Part shown: positions 12,832-63,054 of the stretch, in pieces
Numbering within the stretch: position 1 is the stretch's first letter
Layout: the number at the start of each line of letters is the position of its first letter
Source of the DNA: an uncultured Methanosarcinales archaeon
GTDB taxonomy: Archaea; Nanobdellota; Nanobdellia; Woesearchaeales; ARS49
Direction: 5' to 3'
NCBI GenBank assembly: GCA_964362535.1
Contig: CAYIEN010000001.1
Span: forward strand, 16,271-80,270
Length of the DNA stretch: 64,000 bases
Program-made: the position numbers and the translations under genes
The notes under the pieces: generated by a model
The model's input: only the letters and a program-made list of their open reading frames with translations
What the model was told of the DNA's origin: nothing
The model's database searches: none

Positions 12832-12835
12832 CGTT

Positions 12836-20126: not shown

Positions 20127-20148
20127 ACGACGAAGGTCACGAGGGGGG

Positions 20149-20156
20149 TTTATAAA
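20149..20156 (-). promoter_or_regulatory. TATA box (TTTATAAA) centred ~26 nt upstream of the rpl34e ATG; implies a leaderless mRNA
   Basis: Palindromic TTTATAAA at the spacing typical of archaeal promoters. No Shine-Dalgarno sequence lies between it and the ATG. Confidence 0.5.
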
Positions 20157-20193
20157 GCTAATGGTTGGAAAACCAGAGAATACTCAAATACTA

Positions 20194-20898: not shown

Positions 20899-20950
20899 AC
20901 GACGAGAACGAGCACAAACGTTTAAATAACTATCCCCGAACAATCACAGC

Positions 20951-21523: not shown

Positions 21524-21600
21524 ATTATTTAAATACTCTTTGACAGTCTATATATAGCCAACCATAACCTTTTTATAGCTTCTTAAACAAGGACTTCCCT

Positions 21601-24174
21601 ATGAAAAAGAGGTTGGTGGCTTTAGTCATACTTAGCATACTTCTCTTACTTCCACTTGTTCGCGCGGACTTCAACGTACTCATTCCTGTCATTGAACACT
21701 TCCAGGAAGGATCATGGGAAGCACCCACCAGCGATCGCACCATCACCGTTGAAGCTTCCAAACCCATCGGCGAAATCGACTATTCCACCAGCGACGGCAG
21801 CACGACAACCGTCAAACTATACATGAACGGAACGCTGAAATTCACCACCTCCGGAAGCGACGGTGCAGTCGATGTTCCCGCAATCCTCACCAACAAAATG
21901 GAATGGGACCACAGCAACAGCGGCATCAGCGTCTGCACAACACCCACCACCAATATCTCCCGAGTCAACCGCTTTGCAAAAAACGACCTTGGCCCCATCT
22001 CAAACTTTTTACCCATAACCACAACTGACTCCGACCTCGACAACCACAACCTCGGCATCGGCGGCGCCGGCTGCAACCACGAAGTCGCACTCCCCCCGAA
22101 AGCAATGGTCTGGTTAGGAACCGAAGACGAAGACTACGGCACTATCGACGCCGACTTCGACACGCACATCTGGGCATGCATCGACGGAGATGAGGACGGA
22201 AACTGCGACTCTGATAACACTGACTGCGCTGCTGCTGGCGGAGAATTCTACGCAGACAGATGCTGCGGCGGAACCGAAGGAGATTACACTTGCACATGGG
22301 ACGCTGAAATCAACGCATACTGCGGTACTGCAGCAGACGGACCACACTGGGCAATACCTGAAGACGCAGGCACCATCAGCCAATTCACCACCTGCCCCGG
22401 AACAACACTACTCTCCACTGGCACCGCGCTTTACTCCTGTGGCGGTTCTGCTCCGACTGGAACAACCGCATTCCCTCCCGGAGCTGTTCCCGTCGTTCTC
22501 GGAGGACAAACGCATGATTTCATTTGCAACAGTGGTGTACTTACTGAATGCGCAGGAACACAAGAACCATTCTCCGACAACTGGGACGTTCTTGGTGACC
22601 TTGTTAACATTAGCGGCACCACCAACTATTGCACAAGCGACGGCGACTACACCCCTAACCTCGACGGCAAAAACAAAGAATCTTGCGAAACATACGGATT
22701 CACTTGGACCGGAACAAAATGCTGCTCCGAAGCAGATGACATCAATGAAACTTACGAAGACCCCGGAACCATCGGGGCATGCTGGGAAAAAACATTTGTC
22801 GCTAATGGCGCATTCGTCGCAAACCAAACCATCGCAGCCGTAACAGGACTGCTTCAAGGCTGCAAAACAAGTCCTGTCCCTCCATCACCTTTCCCCCGCT
22901 ACAATCCCGTCTGCACCGTCTTAACTGGAGCTTCACCATTCGGTCAATTGTTCTGCTCAAATACCTTCCAATGGAAAATAGATCCCACTAATAGTAACCG
23001 TAGCGTCAACAAATCCATCATCTGGGAAGCGAATGCAACTACCGTAGTCAGTGATTGCTGTGGAGCAACCGCGTGCTGGACCGGCGACAAATGCCAAGCA
23101 AACCAAATCGGTAGCGCACTCCCTATCAACTATCACGGAAACCGTTGCGAAGACGGACTCTGGGTCCCGCGAGAACTCCGATACAACTGGGACCACACTA
23201 GTAGCGGGTATTGCCCCAGCAACAATCAATGCCTCGTCGACCCGAACGGACTTTTCGCAAACAACAACGACACTTCCGCATATTACGATCCCGCAAAAAT
23301 TCGACCGCAATGCGTCGCACCAGGGCAATACCTCGCCGACCACTACTGCGAAAACGGAACTTGGACAACGCGCACCAAACTCATCGGACTCGAACTCCTT
23401 GACTACGCAGACGCCGTCTCGCCCACCAACTATCAACTCTTCTGCGGAACCTCCGCTGAAGCACTCAACTCGCCCGAAGCAGTTGACGGATTAGTGGGAG
23501 CTGCAAGTTGCTCTATTACTGGAACAAGCGTTCCCTGCATCAACAACTTCTGCGTATTATCAACACCAAGCGGCATCGCGTGGGGAGTTTCACTCAACAA
23601 ACCCATCGACGACACTAAGAGCGTTTTGCCCGCAATTGGTAAAGATGCAGACCTTTGTGACAGCGCAAGCGGAACCGGATACAGCTCCTGCGGAGAAACC
23701 ATCTGGTACAACACCGAACTCAACAGCGTCATCAGCATTCCTAGCGGCTCGCTCGGAAGCGCATCATTCCTCGACCTGTTCATCGCATTTATCAAATCAC
23801 CCATGGACACTTTGAAAACATTTGTCTTTACCTACCTACATAAACCTTTGAATGATTATACTTTCTTCAACAGCACACACACGTTCAACAAAATGTACGC
23901 CGCGCGCAACGACGACAAACACGCCTTCGCATTCCTCGAAGAAGGAATCTTTGAAAACAGCATCCGACGCGATTATTTGGGAGCGGACTATGGCAGCCTC
24001 AGCCTCGGCGTAAACCCCTGCAACGACTTGATTCTCCGCTATGACAACCTCGCATCATGCAACAGCACAACAGGATCCCTGGAAATCGTCCGACAACGAA
24101 CTGGCTCACCCACCGGATCCGGACCCTTACTCAAAGCATGGCGAGACATCACCGCAAAATTGAGGCTTAACTAA
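21601..24174 (+). CDS. Large secreted Cys-rich, sequon-rich surface protein (857 aa)
   Basis: Sec-type signal MKKRLVALVILSILLLLPLVRA, many Cys and many N-x-S/T sequons. First gene of the 21.6-32.9 kb operon. Confidence 0.7.
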   Translation: MKKRLVALVILSILLLLPLVRADFNVLIPVIEHFQEGSWEAPTSDRTITVEASKPIGEIDYSTSDGSTTTVKLYMNGTLKFTTSGSDGAVDVPAILTNKMEWDHSNSGISVCTTPTTNISRVNRFAKNDLGPISNFLPITTTDSDLDNHNLGIGGAGCNHEVALPPKAMVWLGTEDEDYGTIDADFDTHIWACIDGDEDGNCDSDNTDCAAAGGEFYADRCCGGTEGDYTCTWDAEINAYCGTAADGPHWAIPEDAGTISQFTTCPGTTLLSTGTALYSCGGSAPTGTTAFPPGAVPVVLGGQTHDFICNSGVLTECAGTQEPFSDNWDVLGDLVNISGTTNYCTSDGDYTPNLDGKNKESCETYGFTWTGTKCCSEADDINETYEDPGTIGACWEKTFVANGAFVANQTIAAVTGLLQGCKTSPVPPSPFPRYNPVCTVLTGASPFGQLFCSNTFQWKIDPTNSNRSVNKSIIWEANATTVVSDCCGATACWTGDKCQANQIGSALPINYHGNRCEDGLWVPRELRYNWDHTSSGYCPSNNQCLVDPNGLFANNNDTSAYYDPAKIRPQCVAPGQYLADHYCENGTWTTRTKLIGLELLDYADAVSPTNYQLFCGTSAEALNSPEAVDGLVGAASCSITGTSVPCINNFCVLSTPSGIAWGVSLNKPIDDTKSVLPAIGKDADLCDSASGTGYSSCGETIWYNTELNSVISIPSGSLGSASFLDLFIAFIKSPMDTLKTFVFTYLHKPLNDYTFFNSTHTFNKMYAARNDDKHAFAFLEEGIFENSIRRDYLGADYGSLSLGVNPCNDLILRYDNLASCNSTTGSLEIVRQRTGSPTGSGPLLKAWRDITAKLRLN

Positions 24175-24175
24175 C

Positions 24176-25420
24176 ATGCGCGGTCAGCTCACTTTGTTGA
24201 TTATCGTTGGAATTTTGATTGCGATTATGGTCGGGATTGTTTTGTATGCCGCCCGGTCAACCTCCGCAAAAAAAGGCGAATCAAACATCAACACCCAACA
24301 ACAAACAAGTGAACTCCTCAAACCCGTTGAAGAATTCACCCGACAATGCCTTGATCTCGCGGCACGAACCTCACTCAACCAACTCGGCGCACAAGCAGGA
24401 ACACTCTACGAAAGCCAAGGCGGATTAACTCCGGACCCGTATAGTAGTACTGATTACGTTTTACACAATAGCGTCAAAGTTCCGTTCGCAATACTTCCCC
24501 CACAAGGAGATGTAGGAACACTTTTCTTTGCAGACACTCCAAAATATCCCTGGGAAACATTCCCTGTCATTTACGACAACGGCAGCGTCATCATCACGGA
24601 ATACTTACAAGGATATTACGGCATTAACACACTCCCGCAACTGATCGGACCACAGTCAGTTCAAGAACAACTCGAAAACGCAGTGTTAGCTGCAACAACA
24701 ACCTGTCTTGACTGGACTATTTTCGAACCGCAAGGAATCACCGTCATTCCGCAAACTCCGCATCTCCGCGTCATTTTCGGAGAACGCAGCACATCCTTCC
24801 TCTTATCGTATCCTCTCGACGTAACCAGCACTGTTACTGGAACAACGTCGCACATCGACGCATTCGCCGTTGATATTCCCGTCCGCACCAAATCAATCCT
24901 GCAAGCAGCAAGAGCCACCATTGACAAAGACGTTAACGACATAACCTTTGATCCGTCCTCCGTTCTGTACGGTACCATCGGCATCTCAACATCCCGTGAA
25001 CTTTTCGATGACATTCTCACTGTTACCGACCCGAGCTCGACCGTTGGCGGCAAACCTTACCTCTTTCAATTTGCTCGCAAAAACCGCGCGCCTGCGATTC
25101 TCTGGATACAAAATGCAACGGACAAAGTCTGCGATTCAGGAACCGTCCACGCAAGCACATCTGTATTATTCGTCGATGCAACAGGATGTGGCACCGGTTT
25201 TGATTCAACAACTCTTCCTGTTCGCGCGTACGATCCTGACGAAGACGCAGTAACATTCTCGTTCCAAATCAGAACGGAACCAGTTATGCCATCAGCAACC
25301 TACACCGTCACGACCGCTGATGCGAGCTTCACTATTCTGCCCGTCACTGCACGCGCAACCGACGGACAATATACGGACGAACAAACCATCATCATTCCCA
25401 CTGATTACAAAACAACATGA
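24176..25420 (+). CDS. Class III signal-peptide (pilin-like) protein, 414 aa
   Basis: MRGQ-LTLLIIVGILIAIMVGIVLY N-terminus. It starts 1 nt after the upstream stop. Confidence 0.65.
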   Translation: MRGQLTLLIIVGILIAIMVGIVLYAARSTSAKKGESNINTQQQTSELLKPVEEFTRQCLDLAARTSLNQLGAQAGTLYESQGGLTPDPYSSTDYVLHNSVKVPFAILPPQGDVGTLFFADTPKYPWETFPVIYDNGSVIITEYLQGYYGINTLPQLIGPQSVQEQLENAVLAATTTCLDWTIFEPQGITVIPQTPHLRVIFGERSTSFLLSYPLDVTSTVTGTTSHIDAFAVDIPVRTKSILQAARATIDKDVNDITFDPSSVLYGTIGISTSRELFDDILTVTDPSSTVGGKPYLFQFARKNRAPAILWIQNATDKVCDSGTVHASTSVLFVDATGCGTGFDSTTLPVRAYDPDEDAVTFSFQIRTEPVMPSATYTVTTADASFTILPVTARATDGQYTDEQTIIIPTDYKTT

Positions 25421-28400
25421 GAAAAATATTCCTTATCGGGTTCATCGTTCTTCTCGCCATAGTTATCGGAGTCAACGCACAAACATCTGGCTGTTGCTGC
25501 AATCTCGCAAACGCAACCACCCAAGCAGACTCGTATTTGCCAAGCACTAGCTGCCTGCCCGCATTCCCTGACTTTGTTGTGCCAACCTCGACCGACATTA
25601 TTCTCAATAAAACGTGTTCAACAAAATGCGGAGAAGTCGCAGGATTACCACCCGTTCCTTCAGGTTCGTGCGGGTCTGCCGACTACAAACCACCCCCTGC
25701 AAATTTCAGCGCAAGCCCCCTTAAAGGAACCCACGCAATGCAGCTTACATGGATTGCGCCCTGCGCAGCTGATGCGTACATCATCAGCAGATGCACTGGA
25801 AGCGCGTGTTCCAGCTTTGCCGCGATCGGCGTTATTGGTGCTGGCACGAGTTTCATCGACGGCTCACCCGAATTGAAGTGGAACACTGATTATACCTACC
25901 GCATTATTGCAAAATACAGCATTCCCGGAGACAGCGCACCCGCAACAACCGTCGGCAACACAGGTGATATTGAGTGCGACTCACAATTTACCACCGACAG
26001 CTTCTGCATCTCTTCTTACTATTATGAAGGCTTCAAAACATATCTTCAAGCAAACGGATATGCAGGAAGCCCCTCAACAGCATCATCCGCATTTACCTCT
26101 GATTTTGCAACCGCGGTCAATACTGCCTTTTTCACCAAATTTAACAAAGGATATTCTTGCGACGCAAAAAACAAATTAATTTCTTTGAAAACGTGCGGCG
26201 TTGGCGAAATTTGCGTCGCAAAAGGAACAACACCCGCATGCATCACGCCCAGCAATTGCACACTCTCAACAGGAATATTCGGACTTGGCTCCACCACCAC
26301 CACTTGCGAAGGAACTTCCGAAGATACAAAATACTGCTTTATGGACAAAAGCGCAACACCCGTCGATGCGTGCTACACCTGCAGCCAAGCACTCACCTGT
26401 TACGATTACAAAAGTAAATCCTCCTGTGAACGCAACAACTGCTTCGTTGGCGCGTGCTCGTGGCGTGACACCTACACCGACATTGGAGGTGGCGTTTGCA
26501 TCGATGACCGATTCAATAGCTGTCCCCTCTGTAACAAAACCAGCACAACAGGAGCGCCCAACAGCCAAGCATACAACGCCGTCTTCGACCAATGCTCCCC
26601 TGAAAAAGCAAGCGCGCTCAGCACCCCTGCATATCCGTGCTTTTACAGCAACGGACAAGCACTCGACTGCAGCAAAGCCACCTGCAAAGACTATACCCCT
26701 GGACAATGTGGCTCACCCTCTGGCGGAATAACTCTCGCGGCAGATAACAGCATTTTGACTCCCAGCACAGACCCTTGTGGAATAAAAGTCTGCCAATATG
26801 ACCCAACACCAACCATTCAATGCCGTAAAAACGCGGACGCAACACCCTCAGACACATTCTGGCTTGACTGTGCGCTTACCGATGCCGGCTGCGAAAAAGA
26901 CTACTTTACTCCTGTAACGACGCTCATCCCCGTCGGCAGCGCAGGCAAGTACGATTTCCTGAACATCCGTATCTGGGAAAAGAGCAACTCCAGTGATTAC
27001 GGACATCTGGCATTACCCCCCGGAGAATTTACGTTAACCATCGGCGCACCCAACACGACAACCGGTGATCGCAAAGAACTCAAAAACTTCCTGACATACT
27101 TCTGCGCCAATGCATTGAATGCCACTGCATGCACCAGCTTTGTAGGCGTTAACAGTACTCAACTCAATATTAATGATTTAGCATTACAAGACGGAACCAA
27201 AGTTCTGTTTAACTTTACGCCCGGATGGAACACACTGCGATATTACACTCGCGACCCCGCGAATAACCTCGAAATCATCAAGAGCACCAGCATCTTCGCC
27301 TGCACCGCATGCCAAGGACCCAAAGTATTGAACTACACATTCACCCCTGGCAACCAAATCAACGGAACAGTCTATACTCGTTCAACAACCCCCATCGCAA
27401 GCGTATTGTTTAACGAAGCAGCACAACTCGTTTTCTCAGGCTACATCAAAGGACTCCTCACCCAAAATATCACCGCGACACCCAGCTCAGGATTTAATTA
27501 CGCATATACTTTTGGAATGCCTACTCCTGCACTCGTTGAAGGAAGCTACATCTTCTCCGTCAACTCGCGTGACACGAATGACGTCTACATGGGCGCACCG
27601 TTAAGCATTCCTGTCGTCGTTGACACAACAGCACCCATCGCAACGTACAGTCCAATTGACGGCACCATTTTCAAAACCGGAACCGTACCTGTCGTTATTA
27701 CTTTCAGCGAACCCATCCTCGTCAAAAACTTCACCATCATTGAATATCTCGTCATGAACACCACTGCCGGTCCCGTGCGATACCCTGTCACGCGTGACAT
27801 CACAAAACTTTTTGTCGGCAGCAAAAATACCACGTTCACTGCGAGTTTAACACTCACCGAAGGAAAGAAAACCATTGCGCCCATCGTAACTGATTACGCA
27901 GGAAATCCCTACGCAGGCAATAGCTCATTTGTCATCAACGCATTGCCGCCCGTGGTCACTATCAAAGAACCAGCATACGGCGTCAGCAGTACCTTCTCGT
28001 TCCCCCTCACCTTCGAAACGGACAGCCCATCTGAGTGTCGCTATTGGAGCAGTCAAACACTGCCGCCACCTGGAACATTCACCTCGCTCAACCCCTTCGA
28101 CAGCACTGGAACATACGAACACAAAAAAACAACGTTCAGCGAAATCACCAAAGAAGGAGTGCCCTTCAAATTCTACGTCCGCTGTGAAGACACCGAAACG
28201 GGAATCGGAAGCTCCACCTTCTGGCTCAGCGTCGACACCAGCGCACCCAAGATACTTACTGCCTACGCATCACCTAACCCTATTGTTCAATACCCGCTCC
28301 AGACCACACTCAAAGTATCCACTGACGATTTGACCGTCTGCAAATACAGCCCCACAACATCTTCTTACGATGCGATGGAATATACCTTCCCCTACTTCGG

Positions 28401-30432
28401 CATCCTCGGATTACCCACCCACCTCGTTAACGTCACCGTACCAACTGCAAGCTCCTACACCTACAACATTGCCTGCAAAAACGTCGCCGGACTCGGACCT
28501 GTCAGCGCAACAATTCCCTTCGTTGTTGACTTGACTATTCCGTTGAATATTACGAGCACCACTCCTGCATTTAACGGCAATGTTACCGTACCACTCAGCA
28601 TTGAAACAAACAAAGACACCTACTGCTATTACTCCCTCGGCGGAACGCTGAAACCTTTGGGTGACGTCAACAAATCAGCCATGGCACACGTCGCTTACGT
28701 GCCGATGCCCGGACCCGGACCATACAGCATCCCCGTCTATTGCAGCACTGGCGCGGATACTTCGCCCTTCGGAGTCGAAGAACGCAACATCACCGTCAGC
28801 TTCTTCATCGATTTGACGCCTCCGTGGATGACGTACGCCGACGACACCAGCAACAACCCCGAATATCCGCAATACTCCTACTTCCTTGACCGATTACGAG
28901 TCGCGTTCCTCGGAGCAGACAACGAATCAAGCGTCTCTCGATACCACTACCGCATCGAACAAAAAACAACCGGCGTCGTCATCAAAGACTGGACACCCAG
29001 CGTTGTGTTAACAGGATTGCCATTCTACGTAACGCCGCTCAATGTCAGCAACGGAGCCTCATACTTCTTCCGCGTTGTTTCCGAAAACCGCGCACGATTG
29101 ACCAGCAGCGAAATGCTCAGCGACGGTGTAACAATTGACATCACCAAGATACCGCCCCACTGCGTCAACGGCGAATTCGACCCAGGCAACGAAACCGACA
29201 TCGACTGCGGACTTGCTTGCCCACCATGTGGAGACTACCTCAACTGCATCGACAACATTGACTGCATCTCACGCATCTGCGAAAACGAAACCTGCCAACC
29301 CACCTACTGCGATGACAAACGTATCGGCGGCAACGAAACAGACATCGACTGCGGTGGCGGAACCTGCGACACCTGCGCCAACGGCCAACTCTGCGCAGCA
29401 AATACCGATTGCACAAGTCATTACTGCGACGCAGGCGTCTGCGGAGACAACCCCTGTTTCAACACAGTCCTCGATGGATTGGAAAGCGATGTTGACTGCG
29501 GCGGCTCATGCATTACAAAGTGCAACCCCGGACAAACCTGCAACACCGACTCTGACTGCGTCGCAGACAGCGACTGTGTAGATCACCTGTGCAGTGTTAT
29601 CGCTGACGAAGACGTTGATGGAGTGCCCGACGCGCGCGACAACTGCCCCTTCACTCCGATTGGTGAACCCGTCGACGAATTCGGATGCAGCGCAAGCCAA
29701 CGATACTCCTGTGGCGACGAAATTGATGACGCCTGGCGCATACGCTACTTCGGCGACGTCCTATGCGACGGAGACGGCATGGGGGTCGCGAACCCAGATA
29801 ACGACAACCGCAACAACCTCAAAGAATACCGCAAAGGCTCCAGCCCCATCGTCCCCGACGGCGGACTGTTCGGATGGATATTGCTGCTATTGCTCATCAT
29901 ACTCCTCGTTGCAGGATACATTTACCACCGCAAACACCCCGGATACTTCGCCGCACGCTGGAAAGAATTCACAAGCAGATTTGCAAAACAACAAAAAACA
30001 ACACCCACGCAACCCACAGCACATGTCTTGCCTGCATCTGTACGACCTTCCTTGCCTGACTGGCTCACTGTCGACGAACTCAAAAAACTCGGTCCCGAAG
30101 ACGTCAGCGCAAAAACATTCACTCAACTGGACACCTTTGTCAAAGGACAATTGCCCGCAAAACACCACGGCAAACTCCTCAAACAACTTGAACAAGGACC
30201 CCTCGATAAACTCCGAACACTCGCATTGGCCGGATTGTCCGCCAACGAACGCAAATTGTTGCTGAAACAATTACAACTTCTCCGACAAGGAAAACTCAGT
30301 AAAAAAGAAATGGAAGACCTCTTCCGCAAACTTAGAATCACCGCAGAATACTACAAGACGCATAAACTCGAACTCGAACACGAACTTGCTGCGTATTTGC
30401 GCGGAGAACGAGTCCGCAAGAGGAAAGCATGA
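25417..30432 (+). CDS. Giant (1671 aa) Cys-rich type I membrane surface protein / putative adhesin
   Basis: Signal peptide, FN3-like module, Cys-rich region and repeated Ig-like modules (VDTTAP, VDTSAP, VDLTIP, IDLTPP). Three tandem NETDIDCGG Cys modules, a thrombospondin-type-3-like DEDVDGVPDARDNCP, TM helix LFGWILLLLLIILLVAGYIY and a ~170-aa charged coiled-coil tail follow. ATGA overlaps at both ends. Confidence 0.8.
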   Translation: MRKIFLIGFIVLLAIVIGVNAQTSGCCCNLANATTQADSYLPSTSCLPAFPDFVVPTSTDIILNKTCSTKCGEVAGLPPVPSGSCGSADYKPPPANFSASPLKGTHAMQLTWIAPCAADAYIISRCTGSACSSFAAIGVIGAGTSFIDGSPELKWNTDYTYRIIAKYSIPGDSAPATTVGNTGDIECDSQFTTDSFCISSYYYEGFKTYLQANGYAGSPSTASSAFTSDFATAVNTAFFTKFNKGYSCDAKNKLISLKTCGVGEICVAKGTTPACITPSNCTLSTGIFGLGSTTTTCEGTSEDTKYCFMDKSATPVDACYTCSQALTCYDYKSKSSCERNNCFVGACSWRDTYTDIGGGVCIDDRFNSCPLCNKTSTTGAPNSQAYNAVFDQCSPEKASALSTPAYPCFYSNGQALDCSKATCKDYTPGQCGSPSGGITLAADNSILTPSTDPCGIKVCQYDPTPTIQCRKNADATPSDTFWLDCALTDAGCEKDYFTPVTTLIPVGSAGKYDFLNIRIWEKSNSSDYGHLALPPGEFTLTIGAPNTTTGDRKELKNFLTYFCANALNATACTSFVGVNSTQLNINDLALQDGTKVLFNFTPGWNTLRYYTRDPANNLEIIKSTSIFACTACQGPKVLNYTFTPGNQINGTVYTRSTTPIASVLFNEAAQLVFSGYIKGLLTQNITATPSSGFNYAYTFGMPTPALVEGSYIFSVNSRDTNDVYMGAPLSIPVVVDTTAPIATYSPIDGTIFKTGTVPVVITFSEPILVKNFTIIEYLVMNTTAGPVRYPVTRDITKLFVGSKNTTFTASLTLTEGKKTIAPIVTDYAGNPYAGNSSFVINALPPVVTIKEPAYGVSSTFSFPLTFETDSPSECRYWSSQTLPPPGTFTSLNPFDSTGTYEHKKTTFSEITKEGVPFKFYVRCEDTETGIGSSTFWLSVDTSAPKILTAYASPNPIVQYPLQTTLKVSTDDLTVCKYSPTTSSYDAMEYTFPYFGILGLPTHLVNVTVPTASSYTYNIACKNVAGLGPVSATIPFVVDLTIPLNITSTTPAFNGNVTVPLSIETNKDTYCYYSLGGTLKPLGDVNKSAMAHVAYVPMPGPGPYSIPVYCSTGADTSPFGVEERNITVSFFIDLTPPWMTYADDTSNNPEYPQYSYFLDRLRVAFLGADNESSVSRYHYRIEQKTTGVVIKDWTPSVVLTGLPFYVTPLNVSNGASYFFRVVSENRARLTSSEMLSDGVTIDITKIPPHCVNGEFDPGNETDIDCGLACPPCGDYLNCIDNIDCISRICENETCQPTYCDDKRIGGNETDIDCGGGTCDTCANGQLCAANTDCTSHYCDAGVCGDNPCFNTVLDGLESDVDCGGSCITKCNPGQTCNTDSDCVADSDCVDHLCSVIADEDVDGVPDARDNCPFTPIGEPVDEFGCSASQRYSCGDEIDDAWRIRYFGDVLCDGDGMGVANPDNDNRNNLKEYRKGSSPIVPDGGLFGWILLLLLIILLVAGYIYHRKHPGYFAARWKEFTSRFAKQQKTTPTQPTAHVLPASVRPSLPDWLTVDELKKLGPEDVSAKTFTQLDTFVKGQLPAKHHGKLLKQLEQGPLDKLRTLALAGLSANERKLLLKQLQLLRQGKLSKKEMEDLFRKLRITAEYYKTHKLELEHELAAYLRGERVRKRKA
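29155..29595 (+). repeat. Three tandem ~47-codon Cys-rich modules inside the giant gene
   Basis: HCVNGEFDPGNETDIDCGLACPPCGDYLNCIDNIDCISRICENETCQ / YCDDKRIGGNETDIDCGGGTCDTCANGQLCAANTDCTSHYCDAGVCG / PCFNTVLDGLESDVDCGGSCITKCNPGQTCNTDSDCVADSDCVDHLCS. Confidence 0.8.
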
Positions 30433-30911
30433 ACCGCGGACAAATCCTCGGACAAGTTTTCATTTTAATTTTGGCATCACTCATTTTTATCTTGATACTC
30501 GTTTATGGATACAAAGCGATTGGCCAATTTTCCAATAGGTCTGAACAAATCGCACTCATTGACTTCCAAAATAACCTCGCAAACGCAGTTAAGGCCATCA
30601 GTTTGGATTTCGGCAGCGTTAAACGACTCGACTTAACGGTTCCCTCTCGTTATCAACAACTCTGCGTGCTGTGCACAAACAGCCAAATCTGCGCGCCATC
30701 CGACACCTTTGCGCAAGCACACCCTCTCCTTGTCGAATCATGGCAAGGAGGCTCGCAAAACGTCTTTTTAGTTCCACTCTCCGAAACACCCATTCTACTT
30801 GAACGCGTCGAAGCAAAAGACGGAGCGTTCTGCACACCGTTCATTCAAGGCAAAGTATCACTGCGACTCGAAGGCAAAGGAGACCACACCTACATCGGAC
30901 CCTGGACATGA
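30429..30911 (+). CDS. Class III signal-peptide (pilin-like) protein, 160 aa
   Basis: MNRGQ-ILGQVFILILASLIFILILVYG with ATGA overlaps on both sides. Confidence 0.65.
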   Translation: MNRGQILGQVFILILASLIFILILVYGYKAIGQFSNRSEQIALIDFQNNLANAVKAISLDFGSVKRLDLTVPSRYQQLCVLCTNSQICAPSDTFAQAHPLLVESWQGGSQNVFLVPLSETPILLERVEAKDGAFCTPFIQGKVSLRLEGKGDHTYIGPWT

Positions 30912-31951
30912 AAGGACAATTCGAAGTACAATTCAACTGGGTATTCGTTCTGATCGCCGGCGCGGTTATTCTCGCATTCTTCTTCAGCATCGTCCTCAAA
31001 CAACGAGCCATCAGCGAACAACGCCTTGAATTGACACTCGCAGGCGAACTTGATGCAATAACGACCAGTGCAAGCGTCGCAAAAGGAGCAGCACAACGAA
31101 TCTCATTGCCCAAAGCAGGACTTGACTTTACTTGCTCCGATGAATGCTCGTGCACCTTCAGCGTCGGCTCTGTCACCAAAGATTATCGCGATAAACTTAT
31201 TTTTGCACCCAGCCACATTGAGGGAGATACCGTTGTCTTTTGGAGTCTTGATTGGCAAATCCCTTTCCGAGCAACAAATTTGCTGTTTGTCACCAATGAC
31301 CGCATCAAATACTTCTTTGTCCACGACGACAGCGCAGAGTCAGAACAACTCGTCGGCAAAGTCAAAGCATTACTACCCGAACAAGCCAATTCCGCATTTG
31401 TCACACTATCAGATGTCGATTGCAGGACAAACCCCAACTGCATCAAAAATGAAAACTACATCCGCGTTAAATTCGTTTTCCTGAATACTGACCCAGCATT
31501 TGGCGATTTACAACTTGATGATTCATTTAGTGATACGGAACTCGCGGCTGTTCACATTACTCCTGACGCCTTAACTTTCTTTAAGCGTGATAGCAAAACC
31601 GCAACCACATTCACTCCTGCATCCGCATACTACGCAGGCGACGCAACACTTTTCGCAGCAATTTTTTCCGCAGACGAACCCATGTACCGATGCAACATAC
31701 AAGCAGCATCACGACGACTCGGATACGTTGCACGCATTATTCAAAGCAGAATGGAAACCTTCCGCGCAGATGCAGCAATCATTGAACGAGGATGCGCATA
31801 CAACCCCGAAACTATCGCCCGCGTCGCGACCGTCGGCGACGAACAAGGCACATCACTTTCTTCCGGACTTACCGAATTACGCGGATTATCTCTGACACTC
31901 AACGACGAAAATGAAGCATTGCTCCGCCAAAGTTGCCCCACACTTTACTAA
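30908..31951 (+). CDS. Class III signal-peptide (pilin-like) protein, 347 aa
   Basis: MKGQ-FEVQFNWVFVLIAGAVILAFFF. Confidence 0.65.
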   Translation: MKGQFEVQFNWVFVLIAGAVILAFFFSIVLKQRAISEQRLELTLAGELDAITTSASVAKGAAQRISLPKAGLDFTCSDECSCTFSVGSVTKDYRDKLIFAPSHIEGDTVVFWSLDWQIPFRATNLLFVTNDRIKYFFVHDDSAESEQLVGKVKALLPEQANSAFVTLSDVDCRTNPNCIKNENYIRVKFVFLNTDPAFGDLQLDDSFSDTELAAVHITPDALTFFKRDSKTATTFTPASAYYAGDATLFAAIFSADEPMYRCNIQAASRRLGYVARIIQSRMETFRADAAIIERGCAYNPETIARVATVGDEQGTSLSSGLTELRGLSLTLNDENEALLRQSCPTLY

Positions 31952-31952
31952 C

Positions 31953-32438
31953 ATGAACACCTTACAAAAGAGAGCGCAAGTCAAAATGTTCGAAACACTC
32001 GCTGTACTGGTCGTGTTCTTTTTCTTCCTCATATTCGGCGCAAGCTTTTACTTCAAACTTCAGGAAAATGCCTTACATCGCGACCTTGACAAAAATACTC
32101 AGATACGGGCGGTACAAATTGCGCAAAAATCCGTACACTTGCCCGAACTCGATTGTTCATTCGTTGGTGTGCAGCGCGAAAACTGCATTGATTTTGACAA
32201 AATTACGGCGTTAACAGCACTCTTAATGTCAAGTGATGCTGCAAAAATAGAATATTTCAAATCATTTGAATATAGCACACTTCGATTCCACCAAGTCTAC
32301 CCTGAATCCGTGGACTACACTATTTACGATCGCAAACAAGGAGACAGTACAACGGCGTTGCAATTGCCCGTCGTTGTCTACCACGCCATCGACGGCAGTT
32401 ACGGCTTTGGGTATTTAGAGGTACTCGTGTATGCGTAA
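31953..32438 (+). CDS. Class III signal-peptide (pilin-like) protein, 161 aa
   Basis: MNTLQKRAQ-VKMFETLAVLVVFFFFLIFG. ATG 31953 lies 1 nt after the upstream stop; the track ORF starts at 31911 inside the previous gene. Confidence 0.6.
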   Translation: MNTLQKRAQVKMFETLAVLVVFFFFLIFGASFYFKLQENALHRDLDKNTQIRAVQIAQKSVHLPELDCSFVGVQRENCIDFDKITALTALLMSSDAAKIEYFKSFEYSTLRFHQVYPESVDYTIYDRKQGDSTTALQLPVVVYHAIDGSYGFGYLEVLVYA

Positions 32439-32898
32439 AGGACAAATGGAAATTTTAGGATTGGCGGTTATCGTTGTACTCATTATGCTTGGCGTTCTTT
32501 TCGCCGTGTTCTTTGTTTTGCGCGCGCCCGCATCCAACATCGCCCAAACCTACAAAGAATCACAACTTGCGTCAAGTTTGCTCACCACTATGTTGGCTAC
32601 GACGACACCTTGTCGGGGCGCGACCGTTACTGAACTTTTGCAAGACTGCGCATCAGCCGGACAACTCACCTGCCCCTACGGCACATCCTGCGATGAAGCC
32701 TCAAACGCTATCGGCACCATGCTTGAAGGAACACTCGGAGTTTGGAAACGCAGCTATCAATTCAGCATTACGGGCGCGTCAAACACTGAAGCAATCACGT
32801 TTGCTTCTGGCGACTGTACTGGCGAACGCGAAAGCCACACAAATCCTATTCCAACCGCTTCTGGAGCGCTCCAAGTCACGCTCAACCTTTGCGCGTGA
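32431..32898 (+). CDS. Class III signal-peptide (pilin-like) protein, 155 aa
   Basis: MRKGQ-MEILGLAVIVVLIMLGVLFAVFF. The start overlaps the upstream gene by 8 nt. Confidence 0.65.
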   Translation: MRKGQMEILGLAVIVVLIMLGVLFAVFFVLRAPASNIAQTYKESQLASSLLTTMLATTTPCRGATVTELLQDCASAGQLTCPYGTSCDEASNAIGTMLEGTLGVWKRSYQFSITGASNTEAITFASGDCTGERESHTNPIPTASGALQVTLNLCA

Positions 32899-32951
32899 TG
32901 TTGTGTCCAGGACAACACAACCTTAAATGCACATTCTGTTGTATTCTTTTT

Positions 32952-33443
32952 ATGGATTTTACCAAAAGAGATTTGATGATACTCAGTTGTTTGCGCGCAG
33001 ACGGACGTTGCAAACTCGCCCAAGTCAGCAGAACAACAAACGTCCCCATCAGCACCCTCTTCGAACGATTACGCGCCTATAAAGGAACAGTATTGGCCAA
33101 AACAACAAGCCTGCTTAATTTTAACGAAATCGGTTTTGCTACTCGAGCACACCTCCTTATCCGCTGTCAACGACAACGCGAAGAAGTTAAACAAAAACTT
33201 CTGGAATATGCAAACGTCAATTCGCTGTACCGCGTCAACAACGGCTACGACTACCTTGCAGAATGCGTCTTTCGCACCCTGCAGGATGCCGAAATATTCT
33301 CAGAACAGTTACGAACCACATTTGACGCTATTGTTCGCGTCCAATACATATTAGCAGACCTCAAACGCGAAACATTCCTCTCCGATCCCAATCTCGTTCA
33401 TCATGTCTACCCCACAAGACATTCCTCAGGACAACCTTTTTAA
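32952..33443 (+). CDS. Lrp/AsnC-family transcriptional regulator
   Basis: The HTH DLMILSCLRADGRCKLAQVSRTTNVPISTLFERL is followed by an alpha-beta (RAM-like) domain. The start is set at MDFTKRD. Confidence 0.55.
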   Translation: MDFTKRDLMILSCLRADGRCKLAQVSRTTNVPISTLFERLRAYKGTVLAKTTSLLNFNEIGFATRAHLLIRCQRQREEVKQKLLEYANVNSLYRVNNGYDYLAECVFRTLQDAEIFSEQLRTTFDAIVRVQYILADLKRETFLSDPNLVHHVYPTRHSSGQPF

Positions 33444-57571: not shown

Positions 57572-57820
57572 ATGCGAGCGCAAGGAATCTCAATCAATGT
57601 CATCGTTGTCGCGGCAATCGCGCTACTCGTTTTAGTCGTATTGTCCGTTGTGTTCTTGGGCCGCTTCGGCGTCTTCACCGCACAATCAGCTGACTGTTCG
57701 AACAAAGGCGGTTCCTGTACCACGGGTGCGTGTCCTACTGGAACCTCAGAATATTCTGCCTGGAATTGTGCTGACACTGCAGGCGGCGCACGACAAGCAT
57801 GCTGTATCGCGGTGCAATAA
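57572..57820 (+). CDS. Small six-Cys pilin-like protein 1 (82 aa)
   Basis: MRAQ-GISINVIVVAAIALLVLVVLSVVFLGRFGVF followed by C-x6-C-x4-C-x11-C-x10-CC. AGAGGTG lies upstream of the ATG. Confidence 0.7.
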   Translation: MRAQGISINVIVVAAIALLVLVVLSVVFLGRFGVFTAQSADCSNKGGSCTTGACPTGTSEYSAWNCADTAGGARQACCIAVQ

Positions 57821-57821
57821 C

Positions 57822-58079
57822 ATGCATACGCGTGGACAAAGTATGTCTATTAACGTCATCGTTATTACCGCGATAGCTTTGATTGTACTGATTGTTCTCG
57901 TTGTTGTATTGACTGGCCGCGTTCAGATATTCGGCAAAGGACTCGGCACGTGTAGAGGCACTTGCATGACCTCGCCTGCCTCTTGCACCGGTTCTGCGAT
58001 TCCAACACCGCACTGCGACGACGGCGGCAAAACGGCAGTCATCCCTGGCGACGGCTATTGTTGCGTCGCTACATCATGA
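57822..58079 (+). CDS. Small six-Cys pilin-like protein 2 (85 aa)
   Basis: MHTRGQ-SMSINVIVITAIALIVLIVLVVVLTGRVQIF followed by C-x3-C-x6-C-x9-C-x14-CC. It starts 1 nt after the previous stop. Confidence 0.7.
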   Translation: MHTRGQSMSINVIVITAIALIVLIVLVVVLTGRVQIFGKGLGTCRGTCMTSPASCTGSAIPTPHCDDGGKTAVIPGDGYCCVATS

Positions 58080-58336
58080 CACGCGGCGAAATGTCCATTG
58101 GGATAGTAGTTGCTCTGGCTCTCGGACTGATAATTCTCTTGATTCTGTTAGGCGTCGTGGTTAGTCGTGTCGGCATCTTCGGTAAAAGTAGCGAGAATGT
58201 CGCCGCCGACGCAAACGCAGGACTCTGTTTTGGCAAAGGACAATGCATCGCAAAAGAACTTCCCTGCACAACACCCGTTTCAGGCATGCCCATCAGCGGC
58301 TGGACTGACTGTTCCGGCACCTGCTGCAAACCATAA
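58076..58336 (+). CDS. Small six-Cys pilin-like protein 3 (86 aa)
   Basis: MTRGE-MSIGIVVALALGLIILLILLGVVVSRVGIF followed by C-x5-C-x6-C-x14-C-x3-CC. ATGA overlap. Confidence 0.7.
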   Translation: MTRGEMSIGIVVALALGLIILLILLGVVVSRVGIFGKSSENVAADANAGLCFGKGQCIAKELPCTTPVSGMPISGWTDCSGTCCKP

Positions 58337-58367
58337 GTATTTATAGCAAATTCTGATAGGTTTACTC

Positions 58368-58484
58368 ATGAAAAGAGGGCAGGCAACAGAACACCTGGTG
58401 AATATACTGCTTCCACTCATCTTTTTTTTAGGGCTCCTTGCACTCGTTGCCTACATCATTTTCTCGCATAGAGGTGCTCCTTGA
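58368..58484 (+). CDS. Mini-pilin-like peptide (38 aa), absent from the ORF track
   Basis: My translation is MKRGQATEHLVNILLPLIFFLGLLALVAYIIFSHRGAP. ATTTATAG is centred ~26 nt upstream of the ATG. Its stop overlaps the next start (TTGA). Confidence 0.45.
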   Translation: MKRGQATEHLVNILLPLIFFLGLLALVAYIIFSHRGAP

Positions 58485-59212
58485 AAGGCATGGCCGAAGC
58501 GGCGCTTGTAGCGGTTATCTTAGCGGTGGCTGCAGGCTTAATTATTGGAGGCGTTGCTGTTTCTTTTGTTGCGAACTCAAAAAATGTAATTAACAAAGAA
58601 GCGTGTCGAGCGAACGTGTTTGCAGCAGCCAAAGACCCAACCAGAACATTTCAAGTCAATCAATGTTATACCAAAGAAGCAGGCACTTTATCAAAATCAG
58701 ACGACCCCGATAACGTCATTTTGAAAAACGTTGCAGATTTAGTGCAAGAATGCAAGTATCAGTTTGATGACGGTTCTCCTGACAGTATGCCTTGGAGCAG
58801 AGATTTTGCAACAGAGTCTCGCATTTGTTTTGTTTGTTCCACATTTCAACCACAACGGGCCGTTGTGAAAACAGCACTTGCCACCTGGATGGAAAATAAT
58901 GTTCTCGGTGCGAAATCATATATGGAATATGTGAAGCCAAGTTTATTCCTTACTGATCCAAACGCATTATTTTTGAGCGCAGACAGAAAATCAGAAACAG
59001 TATCAGCATTACCTTATCTTTACCCCGAAATACCCTACTCCGTTATTAGCATTACACATTCGGATTCAACACTAAGTTATGCCGTCGGTAAAACTGATAT
59101 GTTCATAGGAACAAGCGATAAATCAGATGCTCGTGACTATACTCATATCTCCATAATGAAAAGTTCTGAACTTGGAGAGTTCTGCGACATCACTTTCTTG
59201 AGGTATCCGTAA
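58481..59212 (+). CDS. Class III signal-peptide (pilin-like) protein, 243 aa
   Basis: The TTG start gives MKG-MAEAALVAVILAVAAGLIIGGVAV. The Cys-containing globular domain is paralogous to 59213..59821. Confidence 0.6.
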   Translation: MKGMAEAALVAVILAVAAGLIIGGVAVSFVANSKNVINKEACRANVFAAAKDPTRTFQVNQCYTKEAGTLSKSDDPDNVILKNVADLVQECKYQFDDGSPDSMPWSRDFATESRICFVCSTFQPQRAVVKTALATWMENNVLGAKSYMEYVKPSLFLTDPNALFLSADRKSETVSALPYLYPEIPYSVISITHSDSTLSYAVGKTDMFIGTSDKSDARDYTHISIMKSSELGEFCDITFLRYP

Positions 59213-59821
59213 ATGGAAAAAATGATTGTAGAAATCGCGCTGATGCTCTCCATTATTGTTGTTTTCGCGTTTGTTGGACCAATTCTTGTTGAAAAAGGAA
59301 AAGCATACTTTGATGGCCAAGACTGCCAAACAAGCATTGACCGTGCAATACAGTTGCACCAAGCCGCAACCGTCTTCAGTAGCAAAATCACGTGTCCCAC
59401 CCAAGAATATTCTTTTGCAGGAACTGATGACCAAATAAAAGCATCTGTTGCCGATGCACTTGAAAAATGCTGGTCACGATGGCACGAAGGAACTACATCT
59501 GCGTTTTCCGGCGATGGCGTGTTTTGCGATGTCTGCGCTCGCTTTGCCGCTTCAGGAAACAAAAAAATAACGGGCATGCATCAATACCTTCGAGATACAC
59601 CTGCTAAAAAAGGCGGATCACTTTACGATTATTTGTCCACTCCTGCTGGTGAAATAAAAACGGCAGTTCCCGATACATTTACAACAGATAAGCAGCAAGC
59701 CGTTGTTTTCACCTATCTGCAATACGTTGATTCAGGCGTATCAGGCGCAGGAGTCCGTTTTTCACGTCATGATGAAGGTTGGAGTACAAGTTGCACCGCA
59801 TACCCGATCAGCCAACAATAA
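59213..59821 (+). CDS. N-terminally anchored protein (202 aa), paralog of 58481..59212
   Basis: MEKMIVEIALMLSIIVVFAFVGPILV. It shares the C(K/W)...(I/F)C.VC..F pattern with the upstream gene and abuts the upstream stop. Confidence 0.6.
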   Translation: MEKMIVEIALMLSIIVVFAFVGPILVEKGKAYFDGQDCQTSIDRAIQLHQAATVFSSKITCPTQEYSFAGTDDQIKASVADALEKCWSRWHEGTTSAFSGDGVFCDVCARFAASGNKKITGMHQYLRDTPAKKGGSLYDYLSTPAGEIKTAVPDTFTTDKQQAVVFTYLQYVDSGVSGAGVRFSRHDEGWSTSCTAYPISQQ

Positions 59822-59873
59822 GCATTCATTTTCCAACCATAGAGTTTATAAATAAAAAGGAGCATAAAACAGC

Positions 59874-60008
59874 ATGAACAAAAGAGGGATGGATTTTAAC
59901 CAGCTGATGATGCTCGTGCTCGCTTTGGTTGCACTTGTTGTTGGCATTCTGCTTTTGACCGGCTGGGGCAAAGATATCATGATGTCCATCGGAGGAGTCT
60001 TCGGATGA
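59874..60008 (+). CDS. Mini-pilin-like peptide (44 aa), absent from the ORF track
   Basis: My translation is MNKRGMDFNQLMMLVLALVALVVGILLLTGWGKDIMMSIGGVFG. TTTATAAA is centred ~26 nt upstream of the ATG. ATGA overlap with the next gene. Confidence 0.45.
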   Translation: MNKRGMDFNQLMMLVLALVALVVGILLLTGWGKDIMMSIGGVFG

Positions 60009-60253
60009 AAGGAGCCTCTTTCTTAATGCAAATGGTCGTCTTCGCGGTTATTGCGCTTGTCGGAGCGTCAGTTTACATTCTTGTCATTCATCCGCGCATC
60101 TTTCAAGCAGCGGACTTAGTCAAAGCATCATGCGAAAAAAATCAGGCAATCACCGAATCCTGTATCTGCTTCGGTAGTCGAGTTGACGCGCGTAGTCCGC
60201 CGCTCTATTGTTGCTCAAATGGCATCAAAGTAAACCCCTGCGTGACCCCATGA
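60005..60253 (+). CDS. Small six-Cys pilin-like protein 4 (82 aa, divergent Cys spacing)
   Basis: MKG-ASFLMQMVVFAVIALVGASVYILV with six Cys, including a CC pair. Confidence 0.6.
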   Translation: MKGASFLMQMVVFAVIALVGASVYILVIHPRIFQAADLVKASCEKNQAITESCICFGSRVDARSPPLYCCSNGIKVNPCVTP

Positions 60254-60486
60254 AACGAGGAATGGAAACAATACAACTTGTTGTAAGTTTAGTCATTGGT
60301 TTAGTTGTTCTTCTCTTAGTTATTGGTATCATTTCAGGCAAACTCGGCGGATTCGCAAAAGCAACCACGTGCACCGGACAAGGAAGTACCTGCATCGCGC
60401 GCACCGAAGAATGCCCAGAAAATACCTTAGCTCCCATTAGCACATCAGACTGCCAAGGAACAAACCATTGCTGTCTCGCACGGTGA
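60250..60486 (+). CDS. Small six-Cys pilin-like protein 5 (78 aa)
   Basis: MKRGM-ETIQLVVSLVIGLVVLLLVIGIISGKLGGF followed by C-x6-C-x6-C-x12-C-x5-CC. ATGA overlap. Confidence 0.7.
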   Translation: MKRGMETIQLVVSLVIGLVVLLLVIGIISGKLGGFAKATTCTGQGSTCIARTEECPENTLAPISTSDCQGTNHCCLAR

Positions 60487-60491
60487 ACAAC

Positions 60492-60941
60492 ATGAACAAA
60501 AGAGGAATGAGTCTCGGACTTGAATTAACAGTTGTAGCCATCGCAGCGCTCGTTGTCGTCGCAATCTACTTCATCATCATCGGCAACACCAGCTCAAGTT
60601 TTCAGTCAGGCATTAGCCAAGTCATACCAAACGCAATGGAATTACAAGTCAAGCGTTGCACGGATTTACAAATTACTACAGCGATACCAGACACGGACAA
60701 AGACGGCCTTGCCGACATTTGCGACCTGTGCATTTCACCAAGCACTGCAGATACAGATGGCGACTACATGCCTGATGTTTGCGACAGACACATCGACTCA
60801 AAAACACGCGAACACGTACCTGACACGTCACCCGTTACTGCCTGTTGCGGAAAAGGCAAATCAACCTGTGATGACATCCTGCGCAATGGCCGCAACTTCC
60901 AATGCAGTTCAACCGAACCAACTCCCGTGCCTGTAAAATGA
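60492..60941 (+). CDS. Class III signal-peptide protein with thrombospondin-type-3-like Ca-binding repeats (149 aa)
   Basis: MNKRGM-SLGLELTVVAIAALVVVAIYFIIIG, then DTDKDGLADICDLC and DTDGDYMPDVCD. Confidence 0.65.
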   Translation: MNKRGMSLGLELTVVAIAALVVVAIYFIIIGNTSSSFQSGISQVIPNAMELQVKRCTDLQITTAIPDTDKDGLADICDLCISPSTADTDGDYMPDVCDRHIDSKTREHVPDTSPVTACCGKGKSTCDDILRNGRNFQCSSTEPTPVPVK

Positions 60942-62245: not shown

Positions 62246-63054
62246 ACCGACGCGGACAACAGCAGATGGTGTTGTTTGTGATAATGGAAATTGTTCTGGT
62301 GATTATAGCGACGACAGGCATGTTTGCTTTAGTTAATCGCGCGTCAACCAATTACACTCCTGAAAAAAATTATGCCGCCCGGGATTTAGCATTAACGCAC
62401 GACGCTATTGAAACAACAACTAACATTTATTACGAATTCTACGGTCCTGTTTTGAGCTATCTTCCGAAATCTAATCTAGGATTTACTAATGACGCTGCTC
62501 AAGTTGACGAGTTTACCAGTCCTATTTTACGCAACCTATTCCTTGCCGAACTCCCAACGTATTCTCCCATTGATAGAGTGCCTTTACAAACAGCAGCACG
62601 CGAATTTTCAAACGGTGCTTCAGTAAGAACTGCCAGCAAAGACAACGCCGTACCTTGTGCAGCAATCTCGTTCCATCCTGCGACTATTGCACTTATTCCC
62701 GTCACTGAAGCCAGCGTCGCATTCACCAACCTCATTGCGTCGACGGACAAACGCTTTATCCCCTCTACCGAAGAAAGAAAAGCACTCATTACTGATAACG
62801 GTCTCGCGCTTGCATCTTCAGCAAAAGCAGATCTGACAGTGTATGTCTTTGTCGCAGATACTCCTGGAATCAAAGTGTACGGAAGCAATGATGGTTATCT
62901 TGGCTGCAACATTGTCAATGCAGTGCTCGGCACGCAAAAAGTCGATGCAGCATACGTGCCATCCTTTGAAGACAAACCCTTACTCACCATAGGCATTAAT
63001 GCAGCGCTCACCATTCCAGCCAACGCCGACGCTGTCCGCAAGGTGCTCTCATGA
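62242..63054 (+). CDS. Class III signal-peptide (pilin-like) protein, 270 aa
   Basis: The TTG start gives MNRRGQ-QQMVLFVIMEIVLVIIATTGMFALV. TTGA overlap. Confidence 0.6.
   Translation: MNRRGQQQMVLFVIMEIVLVIIATTGMFALVNRASTNYTPEKNYAARDLALTHDAIETTTNIYYEFYGPVLSYLPKSNLGFTNDAAQVDEFTSPILRNLFLAELPTYSPIDRVPLQTAAREFSNGASVRTASKDNAVPCAAISFHPATIALIPVTEASVAFTNLIASTDKRFIPSTEERKALITDNGLALASSAKADLTVYVFVADTPGIKVYGSNDGYLGCNIVNAVLGTQKVDAAYVPSFEDKPLLTIGINAALTIPANADAVRKVLS

Follow-up and report, generated by a model that had tools for sequence, protein, structure and literature searches.

A conserved operon of pilin-like and large cysteine-rich surface proteins in Woesearchaeales and related Nanoarchaeia, probably part of a pilus-type attachment apparatus

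The closest described relatives of the locus reported here are archaeal type IV pilus (T4P) loci. In the survey of Makarova, Koonin and Albers (2016; PMC4858521), clade 1 T4P loci (Epd-type, Methanococci) carry at least five minor pilins and PilY-like adhesins, and clade 4E loci of Thermoproteales encode 'two large proteins', one with a C-terminal transmembrane (TM) segment ('S-layer-like') and one with a signal peptide only ('adhesin or minor pilin'). Small minor pilins and conserved cysteines in nearly all components were described for archaeal T4P loci, and a nanoarchaeal T4P ATPase was noted whose pilins could not be found (PMC4858521). The DNA analyzed here is a stretch of 64,000 nt (hereafter, the window), namely positions 16,271 to 80,270 of the forward strand of contig CAYIEN010000001.1 (assembly GCA_964362535.1), deposited as an uncultured Methanosarcinales archaeon and assigned by GTDB to the Woesearchaeales (Nanobdellota; Nanobdellia; ARS49). 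Positions 21601-32898 of the window hold a block of seven genes, O1 to O7, encoding two large Cys-rich surface proteins and five pilin-like proteins with class III signals. The gene order is conserved among relatives, and its predicted products suggest that the operon probably belongs to a pilus-type surface attachment apparatus.

All seven genes lie on the + strand. O1 (21601-24174) encodes a Sec-exported, Cys-rich protein of 857 aa, O2 (24176-25420) a pilin-like protein of 414 aa, and O3 (25417-30432) a type I membrane protein of 1671 aa. The remaining four products are pilin-like: O4 (30429-30911, 160 aa), O5 (30908-31951, 347 aa), which defines the signature family of the locus, O6 (31953-32438, 161 aa) and O7 (32431-32898, 155 aa). 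Junctions in the list of open reading frames (ORFs) are, in order, +1, -4 (ATGA), -4, -4, +1 and -8 nt. This map agrees exactly with the seven + strand genes, sizes and junctions given in an earlier reading of the same DNA (the initial annotation). The first ATG of the O6 ORF, at 31911, would give a protein of 175 aa; the 161-aa start is preferred because homologues begin 2-6 residues ahead of a [KR][AG]Q motif.

To establish how widely this arrangement is retained, the O5 family was used as a synteny probe in species-representative genomes. Relatives of O5 were encoded at 140 places, all in Woesearchaeota/Nanoarchaeia, and 80 of these loci (labelled L001 onward) were fetched with 10-kb flanks; their crude ORF sets were searched with phmmer and then with family hidden Markov models (HMMs). 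O6 and O7 followed O5 in every locus with at least 1.2 kb of sequence downstream of O5 (64/64). Among the 53 loci with at least 9.5 kb upstream of O5, O4 was present in 45, O3 in 46, O2 in 35 and O1 in 30, values to be read knowing that O1 and O2 may lie beyond the flank where O3 reaches 2000-3000 aa. With both flanks available (n=45), O3-O7 were found in 41 loci and all seven genes in 28. The genes of the block were invariably co-stranded and kept one order; the four loci that had been flagged as non-colinear reflect secondary HMM matches. This order was kept at O5 identities down to ~26%, and the median identity to the window protein was 29-38% for all seven families. Some lineages retain just O5-O6-O7 and a small pilin. 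The initial annotation had made its proposal contingent on conserved gene order, which is what the relatives display. A profile search of 1.84 billion cluster representatives further yielded 2164 O5-family members at E<=1e-3, each representing a 50%-identity cluster and nearly all 330-390 aa in length; the family is large, uniform and without annotation. In sum, five distinct pilin-like genes, one copy of each, share a conserved operon with the large non-pilin proteins O1 and O3.

The N-termini of the five pilin-like proteins carry a class III signal, i.e. a basic leader, K/R followed by G/A/S at -1, and a hydrophobic stretch of ~20 residues. In the window they read MRG/QLTLLIIVG (O2), MNRG/QILGQVF (O4), MKG/QFEVQFNW (O5), KRA/QVKMFET (O6) and MRKG/QMEILGLA (O7), where the slash marks the expected cleavage site. 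The five signals claimed in the initial annotation are thus present and conserved across their families. That annotation had put the cut after the Gln; judging from archaeal prepilins, the cut should instead fall between G/A/S and Q, which places Q at +1. Gln occupies +1 in 34/34 members of the O2 family, 54/63 of O4, 75/75 of O6 and 70/71 of O7. The full motif [KR][GAS]/Q shows almost no variation in O2, O6 and O7 and is frequent in O4. K/R at -2 is kept in all five families and G/A/S at -1 in all but O5, where -1 and +1 are variable (Q in 26/81) and K/R is found at -2 in 74/81. A Glu early in the helix occurs in 63/81 O5 sequences, in 75/75 of O6 (at +6, invariant) and in 70/71 of O7 (at +3). 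A hydrophobic helix follows the motif in all five families. A crude six-frame scan of the window for the motif gave 17 hits, of which five fall in this block, nine in two other pilin-like clusters, and three are likely false.

Beyond this segment the five proteins diverge. Profile-profile comparison (hhalign) found the families alike only over their N-terminal 30-80 residues, and paralogy of the whole proteins was not adopted, the similarity being confined to that segment; pilins usually resemble one another in the N-terminal segment only. Conserved cysteines are even in number in each family (two in O2, O4 and O6, four in O5, six in O7; those of O2 and O4 are invariant), consistent with extracellular disulfides. 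O2 has a large head with a D-P-D-E-D motif in its C-terminal region and a weak, sub-threshold Pfam match to DUF7947. Confident AlphaFold2 models built with homologue alignments bear out, for O5 and O7, the suggestion in the initial annotation that the small proteins would model as pilin-like; both show an N-terminal helix of ~55 residues and, beyond it, a globular head with beta-strands. For O5 (predicted local distance difference test, pLDDT, 90.6; predicted template modelling score, pTM, 0.84), helix 3-57 is followed by beta, alpha/beta and helical-bundle parts. For O7 (pLDDT 84), helices 3-30 and 35-56, kinked at Pro33, carry a small alpha/beta head of four strands (108-154). From these features we conclude that O2 and O4-O7 are class III-signal, pilin-like proteins by architecture, with no match to a known pilin family.

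A link between the pilin-like N-terminus and large Cys-rich proteins is encountered in one relative. A protein of 1366 aa with 102 Cys, encoded in L027 (198-4298, - strand), begins with an O4-like class III signal (MKKRGQIQGEFF..). No O3/O4 adjoins the O5-O7 trio of that genome, and the predicted fusion joins a giant Cys-rich protein and a pilin anchor within one chain.

The two large proteins of the window contain 4.4% (O1) and 4.5% (O3) Cys, compared to 0.53% in 11 housekeeping proteins of the window, and both have predicted Sec-type signal peptides. O1 has a signal peptide alone. Its C-terminal ~350 aa are conserved, with 11 conserved Cys, and the N-terminal half varies; most genomes encode homologues of ~370-400 aa that represent the C-terminal domain alone, the Cys-rich N-terminal half being lineage-specific. 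No Pfam, NCBIfam or PDB match to O1 was obtained and no homology to PilY1 was found. The combination of a conserved C-terminal domain and a variable Cys-rich N-terminal half makes O1 the best candidate for a filament-borne adhesin.

O3 is organized as a Sec signal peptide, a GCCC motif, a Cys-rich N-terminal region, immunoglobulin (Ig)-like domains, three copies of 'GNETDIDCGGxC', a TSP3-like segment, a predicted TM helix (1484-1502) and a predicted 169-aa Lys/Glu-rich cytoplasmic tail. Many N-x-S/T sequons are visible in its sequence, and a weak OmpL47-type Ig match was recorded; some homologues carry PF19077 (Big_13) and PF18884 (TSP3_bac). Homologues uncut by a contig end measure 967-3090 aa. 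By hydropathy, 57/59 family sequences have a TM helix near the C-terminus and, beyond it, a 117-338 aa cytoplasmic tail, the exceptions (L002 and L067) lying below the threshold, and most full-length members have an N-terminal signal peptide. The single TM helix and tail indicate an integral type I membrane protein and no released adhesin. Two very large, Cys-rich, Sec-exported proteins are encoded, as stated in the initial annotation, and O3 is not a free adhesin. By predicted topology O3 corresponds to the 'S-layer-like' component of archaeal T4P loci and not to a PilY1-type tip protein; signal peptide, large ectodomain and C-terminal anchor follow the archaeal S-layer layout, and the cytoplasmic tail is atypical of it. 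As a separate observation, a 'GCCC' or 'GCC' directly past the predicted signal peptide of O3 (residues 24-28, window 25486-25500) is kept in homologues as TSGCCCNL, TAGCCCDL, SVGCCCDP or PFGCCTNS.

A second group of pilin-like genes, cluster B (57572..64000, + strand), lies ~25 kb from the block. Five of its genes encode Cys-rich pilin-like proteins of ~80 aa (57572-57820, 57822-58079, 58076-58336, 60005-60253 and 60250-60486), in tandem or near-tandem arrangement; all five combine a class III motif with a hydrophobic helix and a small Cys knot. Larger class III genes and their neighbours occupy 58481-59212, 59213-59821, 60492-60941, 60938-62245, 62242-63054 and 63051-63539, and a further gene of this group starts at 63536 and runs off the window end. 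Across the loci, these small genes encode ~80-130 aa. In 51 loci, homologues were found downstream of O7 and co-stranded with it; 28 loci have them at less than 1 kb and 21 have them at a distance of 1-6 kb. Within 1 kb they are usually the next gene, and one to five copies are present per locus. The block and cluster B are contiguous in L082 and L084, with genes for a protein kinase, an AbrB/PhoU-like protein and Lrp intervening in close relatives. In L084, from a distant Nanoarchaeia genome, ~20 same-strand genes without a Pfam match run on from the giant protein. This linkage in relatives makes the seven-gene block one half of an ancestral supercluster; the link of the small pilins to the block is new relative to the initial annotation. 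Being small, multi-copy and variable in number, the small pilins are the best candidates for the major (polymerising) subunits, a prediction from size, copy number and position. By contrast, O2 and O4-O7 each occur once and in a constant order, the pattern expected of stoichiometric accessory (minor) pilins. The L084 supercluster ends (19781-21110, P0035 context) with a protein of more than 709 aa containing an NlpC/P60 peptidase domain, possibly a cell-wall hydrolase linked to the pilin-like system.

Taken together, the best explanation, and on balance a somewhat likely one, is that the block is the accessory half (minor pilins and adhesin) of a T4P-like surface system specific to Woesearchaeales and related Nanoarchaeia. 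According to this scheme, O1-O7 would be transcribed as a single operon. Sec would export O1 and O3, the latter being held by its C-terminal TM helix with the tail in the cytoplasm, while O2 and O4-O7 would enter the membrane and be cut at G/A/S-Gln by a prepilin-type (class III) peptidase whose gene would lie elsewhere. Sharing hydrophobic N-terminal helices but differing in the structure of their heads, the five proteins may then assemble into a complex of fixed stoichiometry that primes or caps a filament of the small Cys-rich cluster B pilins, possibly at its tip. O1 would be the filament-borne adhesin, and O3 an 'S-layer-like' partner embedded in the envelope.

Several observations weigh against this scheme. 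Pfam and NCBIfam scans of all seven proteins found no pilin family at E<=1, including no match to the Class_IIIsignal/DUF361 model at that threshold; a Pfam scan of 17 O2 homologues found nothing, and cluster B and C proteins had nothing above threshold in Pfam/NCBIfam scans. PDB profile searches with O5, O7, O2 and the C-terminal domain of O1 gave nothing significant, the best pilin match being 6w8u (E=1.2, helix only), and revealed no GspK-, PilX- or PilY1-type homology. The structure models cover two of the five pilin-like proteins, O5 and O7, and neither had a PDB match below E=1e-3 by Foldseek; weak matches to the uS3 C-domain and to flavodoxin-like folds (template modelling score <= 0.38) were dismissed as topology coincidences. 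Similarity in sequence or fold to known pilins is thus lacking, which weakens the pilin claim and leaves it viable, since pilin heads are notoriously diverse. Furthermore, O4, O6 and O7 are of major-pilin size, and synteny is the sole tie of O1 and O3 to the pilin-like proteins.

The lack of assembly genes in and around the block counts against the scheme as well. Among ~50 long window ORFs (some ORFs at 53-57 kb were unscanned), Pfam detected no T2SSE/FlaI-PilB ATPase, TadC/FlaJ platform or A24 peptidase family, so the absence of such genes from the locus reported in the initial annotation holds for the scanned window ORFs. The sole secretion-ATPase Walker-A motif in the six frames of the window belongs to an ABC ATPase at 50.5 kb, and ORFs within 10 kb of the block contained no such motif in any of the 80 loci. 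The literature on T4P machinery in DPANN is mixed. He et al., in a widely cited groundwater study, reported T4P components to be missing from DPANN genomes, a further point against; Jarett et al. described two T4P systems and four FlaJ/TadC homologues in Nanoarchaeota (PMC6142677), and a 2026 preprint on type IV filaments (TFF) reports, for some DPANN, both Aap-like systems and system 1 (Epd/EppA type). A relationship to the 'novel secretion system' of Makarova et al. 2015 (NEQ255/arCOG02487 family) was considered and set aside, no MoxR, vWA or DUF4350 genes being present in the locus.

The lack of ATPase and platform genes near the block in any of the 80 loci speaks for the main rival explanation, that the locus encodes a non-filamentous envelope complex. 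Here the five proteins would act as short pseudopilin-like stalks or anchors that organize O3 and O1 into a surface coat, an S-layer-type or anchoring scaffold without an extended pilus, comparable to the Sulfolobus bindosome idea. The housekeeping surroundings of the block (RNase P p30, Lrp and ScpB) and its near-universal presence in the clade would suit such a core envelope function, as would the O3 layout, which is that of the 'S-layer-like' proteins of Makarova et al. However, the small, multi-copy pilin-like genes so closely linked to the block suggest that one subunit polymerises, and the 117-338 aa cytoplasmic tail of O3 departs from S-layer proteins. The conserved Glu in the N-terminal helices of O5-O7 also speaks for filaments, a Glu in this helix being a feature of bacterial filament-forming pilins. 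We therefore regard a purely non-filamentous complex as possible and rather unlikely.

A more speculative and doubtful reading accepts both the small pilins and the missing in-locus motor. O1-O7 and the small pilins would form a DPANN-specific host-contact organelle without a conventional T4P motor in the locus, in which a five-protein pilin-like stalk is coupled to the giant transmembrane protein O3, whose cytoplasmic tail would transmit or gate contact. Such a trans-envelope attachment or exchange device might in some lineages be linked to cell-wall hydrolases, as with the NlpC/P60 protein of L084.

A Com-like or type II secretion system (T2SS)-like pseudopilus serving DNA or macromolecule uptake, or secretion, and not adhesion, with one major and four minor pseudopilins, appears improbable. 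The presence of five pilin-like genes in one operon recalls ComGC-GG and GspG-K, which also comprise five pilin-like genes per operon, and DPANN, being deficient in many biosynthetic pathways, depend on imported building blocks; competence and pilin genes have been mentioned for ultra-small cells in the literature. Against this, neither the window nor the examined flanks contain ComEC/ComEA-like or secretin-like genes, the two very large, multi-domain, Ig/TSP3-rich proteins of the operon point to binding, and the separate small pilins make the five proteins look accessory.

The least probable alternative is that the N-termini are ordinary uncleaved signal anchors of functionally independent surface proteins that are simply co-expressed. 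The lack of any pilin family or fold match and of a peptidase gene in the window speaks for it. Against it, the motif directly before the helix (near-invariant in O2, O6 and O7, common in O4, with related K/R and Glu in O5) spans five otherwise unrelated families of 35-81 sequences each, order and one-copy stoichiometry are fixed over deep divergence, and the ~55-residue N-terminal helix of the O5 and O7 models is far longer than a TM anchor.

Returning to the accessory-pilin interpretation, its transcriptional premise was examined in the sequence around the block. An A/T-rich, promoter-like stretch was read at 21549..21577 on the + strand, comprising TATATATA (21549-21556) and TTTTTATA (21570-21577). 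The latter lies ~27 nt 5' of the O1 ATG, a position that would fit an archaeal TATA box if the transcript had little or no leader. In the O7-Lrp interval (32899..32951, + strand), an 8-bp hairpin (TGTTGTGT / ACAACACA) and, after it, a T-rich tract resemble a terminator and might serve as one. Together with the tight junctions, the upstream TATA-like stretch and the downstream hairpin and T-tract make the block look like one transcription unit.

The next gene (32952..33443, + strand), starting 53 nt after O7, encodes an Lrp/AsnC-family regulator (Pfam AsnC_trans_reg, 7e-8, and HTH_24), confirming the initial annotation. Lrp is a conserved neighbour, found downstream of the block in 22 loci. In relatives, a protein of ~620-980 aa and an AbrB/PhoU-like protein of ~300 aa ('MKRKVIKLA..') stand between O7 and Lrp, and neither is present in this window. 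This insert occupies 11965-14770 in L002/L082 and is similarly placed in L003, L004, L005, L013, L017, L022 and L028; in L082 the large insert protein is a Pkinase (PF00069). GC skew is negative on the + strand across the whole window (1-64000; -0.05 to -0.24) and most extreme over the operon (22000-32000; -0.17 to -0.24), where GC content rises to 0.50-0.53, which probably reflects + strand coding rich in Thr, Pro, Ala and Cys.

A third gene group without Pfam matches, cluster C, is located at 8354-14017 on the - strand. It includes a 393-aa protein with a class III-like start, MLSRKG/QIK (12836-14017), a multi-TM protein of 642 aa whose ectodomain is large (10936-12864), a lipobox protein of 296 aa (10049-10939), and additional proteins of 344 and 198 aa. 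The lipobox protein resembles those encoded at 399-1340 and 1408-2340; of these three related ORFs, C3 and D1 match one ORF in L063 (3292+) and D2 matches the adjacent ORF (4315+). Elsewhere, 7 kb from the block and on the opposite strand (39476-40704, -), a MinD/ParA-type ATPase with CbiA/ParA Pfam matches is followed by a 174-aa multi-TM protein without a family; ATPases of the FleN/MinD type figure among the accessory genes listed for clade 1 T4P loci of archaea.

Housekeeping genes recognised in the window by Pfam include RFC, TyrRS, PAN, FEN1, aRF1, PheRS, GyrA, ScpB, a RadA-like gene, glycosyltransferases and an ABC transporter, and PCNA was recognised from its translation. Named homologues belong to Candidatus Woesearchaeota or Nanoarchaeia, so the source organism is a DPANN archaeon, as the initial annotation had supposed conditionally. 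Its origin is Hainich groundwater: the 0.1 um fraction of well H43 yielded an ENA contig that encodes an identical O5 protein. A 2956-bp ENA contig of the same sample, Hain_H43_01um_R1_28841 (L001), has identical O4 and O5; its O7 (2396-2955) diverges past ~residue 37 and is split into ORFs of 90 and 92 aa, through either strain variation or assembly error.

The locus bears on how uncultivated Woesearchaeota and other DPANN cells may attach to their partners and opens a way into the surface biology of DPANN. Numerous unannotated class III-signal and giant adhesin-like proteins are conserved in Woesearchaeales and related Nanoarchaeia, with at least 16 class III candidates counted in the 64-kb window alone. 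The locus yields marker families, O5 foremost, and candidate major pilins, and it may supply the 'missing pilins' of the nanoarchaeal T4P ATPases noted in 2016.

As in the bacterial tip complexes FimU-PilVWX/PilY1, GspH-I-J-K and ComGD-GG, a fixed set of four to five different pilin-like proteins is encoded together, and the operon contains a large non-pilin protein (O1) that is conserved towards its C-terminus and variable towards its N-terminus; the small pilins are candidates for a separate major pilin. No sequence or fold homology to FimU-PilVWX, GspHIJK or ComGD-GG was detected; the signal is of archaeal type, with Q at +1 in place of F/M at +1 and E at +5, and the organism is a monoderm archaeon.

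Gln at +1 of mature pilin-like proteins, seen here as well, is reportedly a hallmark of Methanococcus EppA substrates (Szabo et al. 2007). The Epd pili of Methanococcus maripaludis also resemble the present system in their multiple minor pilins and in a major pilin encoded apart from the main locus. They differ from it in that no EppA, ATPase or platform gene is found near the present block, the head domains are unrelated and DUF361 is not matched.

The archaeal T4P loci of Makarova et al. differ from this locus in four respects. Here, ATPase, TadC and peptidase genes are lacking from the locus, with none within 10 kb by Walker-motif search in the 80 loci; all seven families escape detection by Pfam, NCBIfam and PDB profiles; O3 has a long cytoplasmic tail; and the candidate major pilins are very small (~80-aa precursors). 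In common with those loci, several distinct class III-signal proteins are encoded per operon, accompanied by one large protein with a signal peptide only (O1) and one C-terminally anchored large Cys protein (O3), cysteines are conserved in nearly all components, and major pilins can be encoded elsewhere. The initial annotation had proposed an archaeal counterpart of bacterial minor-pilin complexes displaying a giant adhesin. This proposal is supported in part: its minor-pilin side gains from the conserved operon, the class III signals, the pilin-like O5 and O7 models and the linked candidate major pilins, and the free-adhesin role of O3 is given up. The idea of an archaeal counterpart is already contained in Makarova et al. 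(2016) and hence is not new. The layout matches the models of that study, and the locus thus represents no new kind of system, but one that differs from them in detail.

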